Assembly: GCF_000026545.1 (NCBI RefSeq)
Contig: NC_011601.1
DNA from: Escherichia coli O127:H6 str. E2348/69
GTDB taxonomy: Bacteria; Pseudomonadota; Gammaproteobacteria; Enterobacterales; Enterobacteriaceae
Reading direction: 5' to 3' (one strand)
Length of the DNA stretch: 64,000 bases
Shown here: positions 37,658 through 41,771 of the stretch, piece by piece
Layout of the letters: each line of letters begins with the position of its first letter
How positions within the stretch are numbered: position 1 is the first letter of the stretch
Program-made: the position numbers and the translations under genes
Notes under the pieces: generated by a model
Databases searched by the model: none
Told to the model about the DNA's origin: nothing
What the model saw: only the letters and a program-made list of their open reading frames with translations

Positions 37658-38623
37658 TCAATGCAGGGAGTCTATTATATTACACGTTTGGTCCGCGCCG
37701 CCGATCAGTAATGTCTGCGTCCGCACCCCATTCGCCGTCTGTTGGATACCGTTCACCAACTCGCCGCCCGTCACGCCCGTAGCGCTAAAGAGGATATCGT
37801 TCCCCCTCACCAGTTCATCGAGCGAGTATACACGGTTAACGTCAACGCCCATTGCCTTACAACGCTTGCGCTCCTGCTCTGCAATCTGCCGATTTTCCGT
37901 GTAATCCCCTTTAGCCTGACAAAAGTCAATCAGCTCGGCCTGCATATCCCCGCCTAATGCTTTAACGGCACAGGCAGAAATAACACCTTCCGGTGCGCCA
38001 CCGATGGTGTACATCACGTCGTAAGGATTATCATGCCAGCAGGTCAGCACGCTGGCGGCGACATCGCCATCCGGCAGGGCAAAAACCTTCACGCCGAGCT
38101 GTGTTGCTTCCTCAATCGCGGCACTCAGGCGCGGTTTATCCAGCGTAACCATGCGTAACCGGTCCAGCGGTTTACCTAACGCCCGCGCCACGCTACGCAA
38201 GTTGTCCGCCAGAGGCAAAGACAGATCTATCGCCCCGACAGCCAGTCGATTAACAACCAGCTTTTTCATATACATATCGGGCGCATGTAACAGGCTATCT
38301 CGAGGGGCGAAAGCCATGACCGCCAGCGCATTGCTCTGCCCCATCGCCACCATCCGCGTGCCTTCAATGGGATCGACCGCGATATCGACTTCTGGCCCAT
38401 CGCCTTTGCCCACCTCTTCGCCAATCCACAGCATCGGCGCATGGTCAATTTCCCCCTCGCCGATAACCACTCGCCCACGAAAAGCAACGTCGTTTAATGC
38501 CTGGCGCATCGCGGTGACCGCAAGGCCATCAATTTTATTTTTGTCGCCACAGCCGGTTTGCGGCCAGGCAGCCAACGCTGCCTGTTCCGTAACGCGAAAT
38601 AATGGCCACGCCAGGGACATCAT
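37658..38623 (-). CDS. yggF: class II fructose-1,6-bisphosphatase (GlpX family)
   Basis: 321-aa ORF with GlpX-type motifs; 4-bp overlap with yggP. Confidence 0.85.
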   Translation of the reverse strand: MMSLAWPLFRVTEQAALAAWPQTGCGDKNKIDGLAVTAMRQALNDVAFRGRVVIGEGEIDHAPMLWIGEEVGKGDGPEVDIAVDPIEGTRMVAMGQSNALAVMAFAPRDSLLHAPDMYMKKLVVNRLAVGAIDLSLPLADNLRSVARALGKPLDRLRMVTLDKPRLSAAIEEATQLGVKVFALPDGDVAASVLTCWHDNPYDVMYTIGGAPEGVISACAVKALGGDMQAELIDFCQAKGDYTENRQIAEQERKRCKAMGVDVNRVYSLDELVRGNDILFSATGVTGGELVNGIQQTANGVRTQTLLIGGADQTCNIIDSLH

Positions 38624-39897
38624 TGCGCGGCCTCCCCAATATCAACGCCAAATTGTGCCAGCAGATATTTCTCGGCCTGTTCATTCCAGATGCCGTGCGT
38701 TTCCTCAACCAGCCGCGCCAGCTCTTTAAACAGCGGATCGGTTTTGCCTTTTTCGGCAAAATCGGCAATGGCGGTCAGCGGCATGGTCACGCCGTTATAA
38801 ATGAGTTTTTTACCGCCAGGGATATCCGGCAGATTGAGCACGGTTTCTGGCACCGCATCCAGGCCACCGATATGGGTCACCATAAACGACGGCTGTAACT
38901 GCCCCGTGGCGCTAAGGGCAATCGCCTCTTTCATGTCGTCCGTGGAACCGCCGGACGTGCCGACAATGTGCGTACTGTTGTAATGGACGTTGTAGAAATT
39001 AAACGGCACTTTGAAGTTTTTATCCGTCGGCCCGGCAAAGAAGTTCAGGCAGCCATCTTCCGCCAGTAATTCATCAGCCATCTCGACGACTGAAGGCACC
39101 GCTGCATAGACAAATACGTCATCAAATCCGGCATCATCCGTCAGCGCCCGCAGCGTCTGGACCGGATCGCTCACCCCTTTGGTATTCATATACACCAGCT
39201 CAATGCCTTTACTGGCCGCCAGTTCCACCGGCAGCAGCATCTGCACCTGCGCCAGCCGTTTGTCGTCGATATCGACTACCACCACCCGCGACGGTTGTAT
39301 GCCGCCGTTAATGGCGTAATCAATAGCGCCAATTCCCATCGGGCCTGCACACGCCAGTAGCGCAATATTGCCGCCAGGTTTGACGCCCATACGATGCTCA
39401 TAAACATATTGCGTGGTGTGATAATTGGCATGATAAGCGCCAATAATGCAGCACATCGGTTCCGCCAGCGAGGCCGCAGCAAAATAAGAGCCGTGATACG
39501 GTAATACACAGCCTAAATTAATCGCGATTTCGGGAATAATCATATAGGTGGCATTGCCACCAAAATATTCGTAGCTGTATCCGGCTGAATATCCGCCTGG
39601 TAGCCCCATCGCCGGTTGCAATACAAAACGCTGGCCTTTTTTATATTTGCCAGTGAGATTTTTACCCACTTCGACAATAACCCCAGCACATTCATGCCCG
39701 GTAATGACCGGATGATTTTCTAAATCGTCGGGGACGCGTTTATGTTCACTACCGAGTAACGTCGCTTTCCAGGTGGATAAACAAACGCTGTCAGAAATTA
39801 CATTCACTAACAGTTCATTATCGGTAATTTCTGGCAGCTCAAATTCGCGCAGACGGACATCCCGCTTGCCATAAATAGCAGCAACTTTGGTTTTCAT
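38620..39897 (-). CDS. yggP: zinc-type alcohol/polyol dehydrogenase family protein
   Basis: 425-aa ORF with MDR-superfamily features (GHECAG); within the cmt-ygg cluster. Confidence 0.8.
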   Translation of the reverse strand: MKTKVAAIYGKRDVRLREFELPEITDNELLVNVISDSVCLSTWKATLLGSEHKRVPDDLENHPVITGHECAGVIVEVGKNLTGKYKKGQRFVLQPAMGLPGGYSAGYSYEYFGGNATYMIIPEIAINLGCVLPYHGSYFAAASLAEPMCCIIGAYHANYHTTQYVYEHRMGVKPGGNIALLACAGPMGIGAIDYAINGGIQPSRVVVVDIDDKRLAQVQMLLPVELAASKGIELVYMNTKGVSDPVQTLRALTDDAGFDDVFVYAAVPSVVEMADELLAEDGCLNFFAGPTDKNFKVPFNFYNVHYNSTHIVGTSGGSTDDMKEAIALSATGQLQPSFMVTHIGGLDAVPETVLNLPDIPGGKKLIYNGVTMPLTAIADFAEKGKTDPLFKELARLVEETHGIWNEQAEKYLLAQFGVDIGEAAQ

Positions 39898-39911
39898 TTT
39901 TACCTCTGTAA

Positions 39912-41300
39912 TCAGTGTTTATGTTCAGCGGTTAATTGATTAAATAAAGTGTCGAGTTTTGGATCGCCAATATAGTTATTAATCAATATCAGCGGTTTAT
40001 CCGTCACACGTTTCACGCGCCCTTCCAGACTGGCGTGAGTAACGACGATATCCGCATCCGCAGGCACGTTTTCTATCGCGTAATGTTTTACTTCAATTGC
40101 CAGCCCCGCTTTTTCCAGACGTTTACGGAAGGTGGTTGCGCCCATCGCGCTGGAGCCCATCCCCGCATCGCAAACAAAGGCGATACGCTTAACCCGGCTT
40201 AACGAGAATGCCCCCTCTTGTTTCATCGCCTTAACCGCATTGGCTGACTGAGCAAACTCATCTTCGCTCTCCGTTTCCACCGTTTTTTCCATATTCAGTA
40301 TCAGCGAAGTGATAGCAAAGGACACCAGGGTACCTACCGTAACACCAGCAATTGTCGCCAGGAATGAGCCTTTCGGCGTCAGCGCCAGGTAAGCAAAGAT
40401 AGACCCCGGACTTGGGCCAGCCACCAGACCACCGTCCAGTAAGTTAAACATCCAGGTGCCAGACATACCGCCCGCAATCATGGCAATAATGGTCAGCGGC
40501 TTCATCAGCACATACGGGAAATACAGTTCGTGGATCCCACCGAGGAAGTGAATAATCATCGCCCCGGGCGCAGAACGTTTACTCATCCCTTTACCAAACA
40601 AGGTAAACGCCAGCAGCAGCCCCAGACCAGGACCTGGGTTGGAGGCCACCATGAAGAAGATGGATTTACCGTTAACCGAAGCCTGTTGCATTCCCAGCGG
40701 ATAATAGACGCCCTGATCGATCGCATTATTAAGGAAAAGCACTTTCGCCGGTTCATTGATGACTGACAGCAAAGGCAGATAACCCGCATGTACCAGCGCC
40801 TCAATACACTCTTTGACGAAAGTATTAGCAATTAACACCGCCGGGCCGATAACTTCAAAACCCAGCAGACAAAGGAGCATCCCCGCGATACCTAATGAGA
40901 AGTTATTGATAACCATCTCAAAACCAGCAGGTATGCGTTTTTCCAGTGCCTTATCGACATATTTTATGACCAGCCCACCTAACGGTCCCATGATCATTGA
41001 GCCAAGGAACATCGGAATCTCTGCGCCGACGATCACACCAATCGTACCAATTCCGCCCATGACCGCGCCGCGTTTACCGCCGACCAGATGACCACCGGTA
41101 GAACCAATCATCACGGGCAATAAATAGGTAATCATCGGACCAACAATTTTGGCGAAATGTTCATTCGGCAGCCAGCCGGTGGGAATAAATAATGCCGTTA
41201 TAAATCCCCAGGCAATAAAAGCACCGATATTGGGGATGACCATTGCAGTCAAAAAGCCCCCAAAAGCCTGGACCTTTGCACGAGCAGACTTGTTTTCCAT
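39912..41300 (-). CDS. cmtA: PTS mannitol-family EIICB component (cryptic cmt operon)
   Basis: 462-aa polytopic membrane protein with C-terminal EIIB Cys region (FVCDAGMGSS). Confidence 0.88.
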   Translation of the reverse strand: MENKSARAKVQAFGGFLTAMVIPNIGAFIAWGFITALFIPTGWLPNEHFAKIVGPMITYLLPVMIGSTGGHLVGGKRGAVMGGIGTIGVIVGAEIPMFLGSMIMGPLGGLVIKYVDKALEKRIPAGFEMVINNFSLGIAGMLLCLLGFEVIGPAVLIANTFVKECIEALVHAGYLPLLSVINEPAKVLFLNNAIDQGVYYPLGMQQASVNGKSIFFMVASNPGPGLGLLLAFTLFGKGMSKRSAPGAMIIHFLGGIHELYFPYVLMKPLTIIAMIAGGMSGTWMFNLLDGGLVAGPSPGSIFAYLALTPKGSFLATIAGVTVGTLVSFAITSLILNMEKTVETESEDEFAQSANAVKAMKQEGAFSLSRVKRIAFVCDAGMGSSAMGATTFRKRLEKAGLAIEVKHYAIENVPADADIVVTHASLEGRVKRVTDKPLILINNYIGDPKLDTLFNQLTAEHKH

Positions 41301-41327
41301 AATGTTATCCTGTAGAGGAGAGAGTCA

Positions 41328-41771
41328 TTATCCGCGGCTGATAATGTCCACTAATTGTTTTTCTGATGATGCGGTTAAGAGTTGTTCGAGTATTTCTTCT
41401 TCGCACAGTAATTCACTTAACGCCTGAATAGCGCCAATGTGCGAATTGGCATCGGCAGCAGAAAGCCCGATGAGTAATTTAATCGGTTCGTCATTCCCCG
41501 GAAAATAAACGCCTTGTTTAAGTAACGTCAAAGACATCCCGGTTTTAAGCGCCCCACATTCCGGTCGCGCATGAGGCATTGCCACGCCTGGAGCGAGAAT
41601 ATAATAAGGACCATTGCTGATGGTGGAATCTTTAATAGCCTGAATGTAATTCTCGCTGATATAGTTTTTTGCTAACAGTGATGCCATCGAGAAATTGATA
41701 GCTTCCTGCCAGTCTTTTGTTGAATGTATAACTGAGATTGATAATTCTGGAAAATAATCAATAAGCCGCAT
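41328..41771 (-). CDS. cmtB: PTS mannitol-family EIIA component
   Basis: 147-aa ORF with EIIA-2 His region (VAMPHARPE). Confidence 0.88.
   Translation of the reverse strand: MRLIDYFPELSISVIHSTKDWQEAINFSMASLLAKNYISENYIQAIKDSTISNGPYYILAPGVAMPHARPECGALKTGMSLTLLKQGVYFPGNDEPIKLLIGLSAADANSHIGAIQALSELLCEEEILEQLLTASSEKQLVDIISRG

Follow-up and report, generated by a model that had tools for sequence, protein, structure and literature searches.

Gene organization of the cmtBA-yggPFDC cluster

The 64,000-nucleotide stretch of the chromosome of Escherichia coli O127:H6 strain E2348/69 analysed here (contig NC_011601.1; hereafter the window) carries six consecutive minus-strand genes between positions 36417 and 41771, on which the list of open reading frames and the RefSeq annotation agree. 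These are the known and already annotated cmtBA-yggPFDC cluster of E. coli, the orthologue of b2928-b2934 of strain K-12, and comprise two genes of a phosphotransferase system (PTS) followed by four genes for a dehydrogenase, a phosphatase, an MtlR-family protein and a kinase (Table 1). Gene annotation was taken from the RefSeq/PGAP record of the E2348/69 chromosome, NZ_CP059840.2, in which 5.9 kb around the cluster is 100% identical to the window. A preliminary description of this DNA had placed the six-gene cluster at 38620-41771; it recognised the genes correctly, but the span it gave covers only yggP, cmtA and cmtB. In RefSeq the cluster is flanked upstream by an SPFH (prohibitin-family) gene and tktA, and downstream by an energy-coupling factor (ECF) transporter block followed by epd.

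As the preliminary description had stated, all six frames are full-length and free of internal stops. They are open from start to stop, their lengths match those of the K-12 orthologues exactly, and PGAP calls all six genes intact. The two 4-bp overlaps it had pointed out are real as well: the yggP stop and the yggF start share ATGA (38620-38623), and the yggD stop and the yggC start share GTGA (37127-37130). Taken in the order cmtB to yggC, the junctions measure 27, 14, -4, 21 and -4 bp, a Shine-Dalgarno-like motif precedes every start, and a consensus terminator scan found no terminator-like site in the intergenic gaps of the cluster. Genes lying on one strand, with short or overlapping junctions, no internal terminator and an order kept in five genera have the layout of a single operon, and transcription of cmtBA-yggPFDC as one unit is plausible from the gene spacing.

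Table 1. Positions of the genes and elements discussed (window coordinates, except where a locus of another genome is named)
Feature	Position	Strand	Description
cmtB	41328-41771	-	147 aa; PTS enzyme IIA (EIIA), PTS_EIIA_2 family
cmtA	39912-41300	-	462 aa; PTS enzyme IICB (EIICB), mannitol type
yggP	38620-39897	-	425 aa; Zn-dependent medium-chain dehydrogenase, SorE-like
yggF (annotated glpX, class II fructose-1,6-bisphosphatase)	37658-38623	-	321 aa; GlpX-type paralogue
yggD (RefSeq fumE, 'fumarase E')	37127-37636	-	169 aa; MtlR family
yggC	36417-37130	-	237 aa, GTG start; P-loop kinase, PRK/PanK-like PRK09270 family
AT-rich divergent control region, cmtB/SPFH gene	41772-42147		29.5% GC as compared to 51.7% for the window
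Candidate sigma-70 promoter	41817-41845	-	putative; TTGCTT-17-TATTTT, read from the sequence
Proximal CRP-like site, degenerate	41941-41956		TGTAG-N6-TAACA, 3 mismatches; 44 bp from the distal site
Distal CRP-like site	41985-42000		AGAGA-N6-TCACA, 2 mismatches
Intragenic sigma-54 motif in yggP	39361-39377	-	CTGGCGGCAATATTGCG; 1 mismatch from K-12 site IS35
SPFH/prohibitin-family gene	42148-43056	+	302 aa, GTG start; between cmtB and tktA
PHP-domain phosphatase (PRK09248) ending the Vibrionaceae cassettes	L003 10603-11349; L014 8616-9362

The cluster is intact and under purifying selection

A check of the frames against orthologues, which the preliminary description had proposed, found neither premature stops nor frameshifts. 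Between the yggC stop and position -77 of cmtB, the sequence is colinear with K-12 over 5432 bp with zero indels, and nucleotide identity to K-12 is 94-97% for five genes and 82% for yggC. Alignments to NCBIfam equivalog models span the full length in YggC, YggD and CmtB, and almost the full length in YggF and CmtA. By chance, a frame open for 425 codons, as in yggP, would arise with a probability of about (61/64)^425, roughly 1e-9, and is therefore not a chance frame. Since the frames match their orthologues end to end, a sequencing error hiding a frameshift is also unlikely.

The ratio of nonsynonymous to synonymous substitution rates (dN/dS) as compared to K-12 was 0.014 for cmtA, 0.065 for yggP, 0.061 for yggF, 0.078 for yggD, 0.19 for cmtB and 0.21 for yggC. 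Against Salmonella enterica, where the cluster occupies the same site, dN/dS was 0.045-0.098 for the five genes with an estimable dS (yggP, 0.045); dS itself was 0.87-2.06 for these five, and was saturated for cmtB. None of the six genes showed internal stops, frameshifts or relaxed selection, the marks of a decaying gene. The cluster is thus intact and maintained by purifying selection.

Among 5426 complete E. coli genomes, 5381 (99%) carry at least 80% of a 5.9-kb cluster query in one place. Six genomes sampled in other lineages (ST131, O111:H8, O55:H7, and bovine, poultry and fish isolates) have all six genes without a pseudogene flag. In one of the six, strain EC20-72C-1, cmtB is annotated nine codons shorter at the C-terminus (138 aa; locus L021, 4870-5286). 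Losses are rare: strain N-01 has a deletion inside yggF, and PSS-10 lacks the genes from yggD to cmtB in association with IS1.

Expression of the cluster in K-12

The label 'cryptic' survives in database names (PDB 2OQ3). Published data on K-12 contradict it. The cAMP receptor protein (CRP), with cAMP, binds and activates the cmtB promoter (PMC3105977), and a PcmtA fusion to green fluorescent protein was active, dependent on CRP and induced sixfold by uridine (PMC12412646). Deletion of cmtA was the only one among 26 transporter deletions to raise the minimal inhibitory concentration of tobramycin (PMC12412646), while deletion of yggF reduced fermentative growth on glycerol (PMC8719807). A CRP-dependent promoter together with deletion phenotypes for cmtA and yggF means that the label is outdated. 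The view of the preliminary description, that the cluster looks functional at the sequence level in spite of being called cryptic, is therefore borne out by the absence of stops and frameshifts, colinearity with K-12, selection, conserved motifs, gene order and the K-12 data.

Family assignment of the encoded proteins

CmtB matched the equivalog model NF007358 over its entire length (positions 1-147 of 147) with 316.5 bits against a cutoff of 192, and also matched PF00359. The phospho-acceptor His67 lies in the motif MPHARPE, and CmtB shares 93% identity with its K-12 counterpart, whose structure is PDB 2OQ3. As an EIIA, CmtB is nearer to the ascorbate type (98 bits) than to the IIA domain of MtlA (48 bits). 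CmtA exceeded the cutoffs of TIGR00851 (mtlA IIC; 477.5 against 468.4) and PRK15083 (590.6 against 589), and its matches to PF02378 and PF02302 give it both the EIIC and the IIB domain of a mannitol-type EIICB. Cys377 of the IIB domain, in CDAGMGSS (CDAGMGSSAMGA), aligns to the MtlA IIB structures 1VKR and 1VRV, and the whole protein differs from that of K-12 by one amino acid.

YggP has the ADH_N and ADH_zinc_N domains (PF08240 and PF00107). Residues C39, H68, E69 and E146, the motif GPMGIG, and D209 are invariant from Proteobacteria to Clostridia in six homologues of down to 65% identity. A search of PDB sequences with YggP returned just distant dehydrogenases of the same superfamily and no close structure. 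Its nearest characterised relative is SorE, the L-sorbose-1-phosphate reductase. With SorE of Klebsiella pneumoniae, which is encoded in a canonical sor operon, YggP shares 45.6% identity across 98% of its length, and with the proteins annotated as SorE in general 44-46% across 97-98%. At this level of identity, and next to a PTS of the mannitol rather than the mannose type, YggP does not qualify as an orthologue of SorE with the same substrate; it is a SorE paralogue, whose substrate may differ.

YggF scored 582.9 against a cutoff of 259.3 with TIGR00330 and aligned over its full length to the E. coli GlpX structures 1NI9 and 3D1R, with GEGEID, DPIEGT, PDGDV and GGAPEG all present. Fructose-1,6-bisphosphatase (FBPase) activity in vitro has been reported for the 98%-identical K-12 YggF (Brown 2009, as cited in PMC8719807 and PMC3105977).

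YggC matched NF006742 over positions 1-237 of 237 with 518.7 against a cutoff of 402, its closest solved relative being 3C8U. The Walker A motif GTGKST lies at residue 53, and APPGxGKxTL, DGFH, WPxYDR and EGNW are invariant in seven homologues. The E2348/69 allele is divergent, with 83% amino acid identity to K-12. An earlier prediction made YggC a 'sugar/polyol kinase' (PMC3223725). For the putative kinase FrcK, whose domain matches are likewise of the P-loop/pantothenate-kinase kind, neither the role nor the substrate is described as clear (PMC10433430).

YggD matched the MtlR family PF05068 with 179.6 bits, aligned with the equivalog NF007455 over positions 1-169 of 169, and has all but 2 of its 169 residues in common with Shigella YggD, solved as 3C8G. 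Family and PDB searches matched the MtlR family only, with no similarity to class I or class II fumarases. The name 'fumarase E' comes from a screen in vitro, as cited in PMC8464067. A fumABC triple mutant of strain CFT073 grew very poorly on glycerol (PMC7064253); therefore any fumarase activity that YggD has is insufficient in vivo. Membership of the MtlR family, a place next to PTS genes and the PRD regulators that take its place in Clostridia suggest a regulatory role, which would probably be exerted through protein contacts since chromatin immunoprecipitation with exonuclease digestion (ChIP-exo) saw no DNA binding by YggD (PMC8464067). YggD is thus more likely a pathway regulator acting in this way than a physiological fumarase.

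Conservation of the cassette in other bacteria

Homologues of YggP are abundant, and their gene neighbourhoods are very consistent. Salmonella has the six genes in the same order at the same chromosomal site as E. coli. In Hafnia, Yersinia and Serratia the identical order EIIA-EIICB-YggP-GlpX-MtlR-YggC is found at unrelated chromosomal sites. Aliivibrio fischeri and Vibrio crassostreae have EIIA-EIICB-YggP-MtlR-YggC followed by a PHP-domain phosphatase, with the GlpX-type enzyme absent, an apparent non-orthologous replacement of the phosphatase step. In three clostridial loci the order is EIIA-YggC-EIICB-YggP, with a regulator of the PRD/Mga type. On these gene contents, the conserved core consists of the PTS pair, YggP and YggC, while the phosphatase and the regulator can be exchanged. 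None of the cassettes examined from Enterobacterales, Vibrionaceae or Clostridia contained a dedicated aldolase or isomerase, which suggests that the end product is a central metabolite. At one clostridial locus (L004), a gene for a pyrophosphate-dependent phosphofructokinase lies directly upstream of the cassette.

Control region of cmtB

The AT-rich region upstream of cmtB, in which the preliminary description had proposed a search for regulators, is real (Table 1). The DNA upstream of cmtB is nearly identical to that of K-12 only to position -77 from the ATG (window 41848). Beyond this point, 41849-42024 (-77 to about -250 of cmtB) is a strongly diverged yet alignable allele, and from about 42025 onwards there is an insertion relative to K-12 that consists of the SPFH gene and the DNA upstream of it.

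The upstream regions of the EIIA genes of E2348/69, K-12, Salmonella, Hafnia, Yersinia and Serratia were aligned for a cross-genus footprint. Two CRP-like sites 44-45 bp apart, each with at most 2 mismatches, were found in K-12, Salmonella, Yersinia and Serratia, as compared to a chance expectation of about 0.14-0.15 such sites per 300 bp. At the place of the distal site of E2348/69, Salmonella has a perfect TGTGA-N6-TCACA, and K-12 and Serratia have sites of 2 mismatches. With two mismatches in the distal and three in the proximal site, CRP control may be weaker in E2348/69. The weight of these sites rests solely on the cross-genus footprint, since a pattern search of the whole window for CRP sites was uninformative (203 matches against 221 expected).

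The candidate sigma-70 promoter lies within the part shared with K-12, and its block and 17-bp spacing are kept in K-12 and Salmonella (TTGATT-17-TATTTT). It was not reported by the consensus scan for promoters and terminators, whose hits were at the level of shuffled sequences (8 against 8.8 and 10 against 8.8) and are therefore not evidence. An Rfam scan of 33000-43400 with E up to 1 found no riboswitch or leader in the cluster or in the AT-rich region. Inside yggP, the sigma-54 motif corresponds to K-12 site IS35, mapped by sigma-54 ChIP-seq (PMC4591121); 0.03 such matches are expected by chance.

Two further candidates were given up. CytR-type control was raised by the uridine induction of PcmtA and the tandem CRP-like sites, and was dropped because CytR is not invoked in the source paper and a further 13 transporter promoters are also induced by uridine; the induction fits a general cAMP-CRP effect. 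A palindrome in the cmtB leader, ACCG-CCGGA-CGGT, was set aside, as it is not conserved in Salmonella.

Proposed pathway and its alternatives

Taken together, cmtBA-yggPFDC probably encodes a CRP-activated PTS catabolic pathway for a mannitol-like polyol, or a ketose, a reading that we favour without holding it to be settled. The assignment of the single steps is much more tentative, and we think it unlikely to hold in all its details. Judging from family membership and conserved residues, CmtB would pass phosphate from HPr through His67 to Cys377 in the IIB domain of CmtA, and the IIC domain of CmtA would import and phosphorylate the mannitol-like substrate. YggP, from its relationship to SorE and the chemistry of the sor pathway, may interconvert a polyol (hexitol) phosphate and a ketose 1-phosphate. 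YggC would then add a second phosphate to give a 1,6-bisphosphate, which would be fructose-1,6-bisphosphate itself if the substrate yields mannitol-1-phosphate, and YggF, as a GlpX-type 1-phosphatase, could remove the phosphate at C1. We infer this bisphosphate route because a P-loop kinase and a GlpX-type 1-phosphatase are present and an aldolase is absent. The product would enter glycolysis as fructose-1,6-bisphosphate, or as fructose-6-phosphate after the action of YggF, or as a close analogue of these. YggD, as a member of the MtlR family, is predicted to regulate the pathway through protein contacts.

Several observations weigh against such a pathway. When 198 carbon sources were screened for induction of PcmtA, the one that stood out was uridine rather than a polyol (PMC12412646). 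Unless regulated, a kinase and a phosphatase that share one compound would form a futile cycle. In K-12, where ChIP-exo detected no DNA binding by YggD, the same study called YggD a verified fumarase E (PMC8464067). The idea of a single transcription unit is put in question by the sigma-54 site inside yggP (PMC4591121) and by a source that lists '(yggDC)' as a separate transcription unit (PMC3946193). With its degenerate proximal CRP-like site and its strong divergence from K-12 between -77 and about -250, E2348/69 may also not behave as the K-12 expression data would predict.

A second system for D-mannitol is the same reading in a specific version, with the substrate named: CmtAB would take up mannitol as mannitol-1-phosphate, YggP would oxidise this at C2 to fructose-1-phosphate, YggC would turn the latter into fructose-1,6-bisphosphate, and YggF would provide fructose-6-phosphate. 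SorE chemistry in the sor pathway acts on the carbon beside the phosphorylated one, and YggP has 46% identity to SorE. CmtA reaches the cutoffs of the mannitol IIC and IICBA families, YggD belongs to the mannitol-repressor family, no cassette examined has an aldolase, and the FBPase activity of YggF is on record through its citation in PMC8719807. However, the PRK15083 score of CmtA is barely over the cutoff, CmtB is nearer to an ascorbate-type EIIA than to the IIA of MtlA, and MtlD of E. coli already turns mannitol-1-phosphate into fructose-6-phosphate in one step. The genes were also reportedly named 'cryptic' by Sprenger in 1993 because they did not replace mtlA. We regard D-mannitol as an unlikely substrate.

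Less probable again is that the six genes are neighbours with separate roles, with YggF as a back-up gluconeogenic FBPase, YggD as a minor fumarase and CmtA as a low-level transporter that admits aminoglycosides. The FBPase activity of YggF (as cited in PMC8719807) together with the glycerol-fermentation phenotype of its deletion (PMC8719807), the name fumarase E (RefSeq; PMC8464067) and the increase in tobramycin resistance on deletion of cmtA (PMC12412646) would all agree with it. Against it, the six genes move as an ordered set to unrelated sites in Hafnia, Yersinia and Serratia, the four-gene core is linked in Vibrionaceae as well as Clostridia, two gene pairs overlap by 4 bp, and any remaining fumarase does not compensate on glycerol in the CFT073 fumABC mutant (PMC7064253). 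That the cluster is a silent relic, with intact frames never usefully expressed and heading to decay, is highly improbable and already largely refuted: the historical label in the name of PDB 2OQ3, the losses in N-01 (yggF) and PSS-10 (yggD-cmtB) and the shorter cmtB of EC20-72C-1 would suit it, but between E. coli and Salmonella, where dS is high to saturated, dN/dS stays far under 1, 99% of the genomes keep at least 80% of the cluster query in one place, and promoter activity and deletion phenotypes have been published for K-12 (PMC3105977, PMC12412646, PMC8719807).

The cluster might represent a PTS pathway not characterised before, in which a polyol yet to be identified would be converted to a ketose 1-phosphate and passed by a dedicated kinase and 1-phosphatase pair to glycolysis, with a core common to Clostridia and Enterobacterales, and in which 'fumarase E' would be a misnomer for a regulator. 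We consider this a real possibility, although one that we would stop short of calling probable.

The finding that the cluster is intact is correct but ordinary, as the genes are already annotated intact in RefSeq and known to be expressed in K-12. Of wider interest is that a cluster so widely conserved has a substrate still unnamed more than 30 years after it was called 'cryptic'. The comparative picture narrows the search for this substrate by way of the four-gene core common to Clostridia, a SorE paralogue, interchangeable phosphatases and the lack of an aldolase. The diverged allele upstream of cmtB in E2348/69 could cause a strain difference in cmt expression. CmtA has recently been linked to aminoglycoside uptake (PMC12412646), and therefore strain differences in the cmtB control region could matter for that effect.

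Neighbouring ECF, SPFH and REP features

The SPFH gene and the ECF module (33823-36445, plus strand) sit where the preliminary description had placed them. The view taken there of 33-43 kb, as a contiguous run of transport and carbohydrate functions about which little is established, is fair except that one ECF ATPase gene in it is a pseudogene. This second ECF ATPase gene (35768-36445, plus strand) has a stop at codon 11 (PGAP, 'internal stop'), and is a pseudogene in E2348/69, since the next ATG (35912) follows the Walker A motif; strain N-01 and Salmonella have an intact copy. This gene and yggC are convergent, and their 3' ends overlap by 29 bp. A gene for a PPC-domain protein and the ECF S, T, A and A' genes form a block (33100-36416) present in 3319 of the 5426 E. 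coli genomes and absent from K-12. As the same block occurs at the same site in Salmonella, it looks ancestral and lost in K-12-like strains. For the ECF S component, the match to the CD3073 family stayed under the family cutoff.

The last 300 bp of yggC (36417-36716), next to this block, are 61-73% identical to K-12, as compared to 82-100% in the 150-bp windows elsewhere in the cluster. Over the C-terminal third of YggC, the E2348/69 protein is 73% identical to that of Salmonella, and the K-12 protein 60%. Both yggC alleles keep the 237-codon frame and all conserved motifs. The pattern suggests that the 3' end of K-12 yggC was replaced when the ECF block was lost.

The SPFH gene was found in 1815 of 5426 genomes and is absent from K-12; all four combinations of presence and absence of the ECF block and the SPFH gene occur among strains. 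The gap between the SPFH gene and tktA holds Rfam matches to small RNAs of the repetitive extragenic palindromic (REP) type at 43127-43169 (minus strand) and 43173-43258 (plus strand); ES036/CssrF scored 50 bits, above the gathering score, and naRNA4 32 bits, below it. Pieces at about 43072-43251 match dozens of places per genome, as expected for REP elements, and a query of 41849-43270 matched a median of 35 places per E. coli genome. On the minus strand, a strong terminator-like hairpin (43060-43081; a stem of 9 pairs, including 7 GC pairs, and then a T run) follows tktA and is placed immediately beyond the 3' end of the SPFH gene; it is likely the terminator of tktA.

Comparison with known systems

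The K-12 cluster cmtBA-yggPFDC (b2934-b2928) has the same six genes in the same order, on the same strand, with the same lengths and both 4-bp overlaps. It differs in the yggC allele and in the DNA upstream of cmtB beyond -77, and K-12 lacks the SPFH gene and the ECF module of E2348/69.

With mtlADR the cluster has in common the mannitol IIC and IIB families with their Cys motif (CmtA), the MtlR family (YggD) and a CRP-dependent PTS. Unlike mtlADR, it has a separate EIIA, nearer to the ascorbate type, and lacks an MtlD-type dehydrogenase; a SorE-like Zn dehydrogenase, a P-loop kinase and a GlpX-type phosphatase are found instead. As for the GlpX of E. coli itself, YggF aligns with it over the full length, has the same motifs and is over the equivalog cutoff, whereas YggF is a paralogue that lies within a PTS cluster and whose place is taken by a PHP phosphatase in Vibrionaceae. 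YggF has been reported to be less efficient than Fbp (PMC8719807).

The sor operon of Klebsiella comprises a regulator, a short-chain dehydrogenase/reductase, four mannose-family PTS genes (IIA, IIB, IIC and IID) and then sorE. SorE and YggP are related at the identity given above, and both adjoin PTS genes; in contrast to the cmt-ygg cluster, the sor operon has neither a kinase nor a phosphatase. In the gat pathway for galactitol, the PTS is followed by the Zn dehydrogenase GatD, a kinase and an aldolase. The logic is the same, in that a polyol phosphate is oxidised by a Zn medium-chain dehydrogenase and then phosphorylated a second time, and the likeness is one of analogy only: YggP is about 25% identical to proteins annotated as galactitol-1-phosphate 5-dehydrogenase, the cmt-ygg cluster has no aldolase, and its kinase is of the PRK/PanK type, not of the PfkA or PfkB type. 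With no MtlD, no aldolase, a PTS family unlike that of sor and a kinase type of its own, the cluster, as judged from its gene content, resembles mtl, gat and sor in logic and is a member of none of them.

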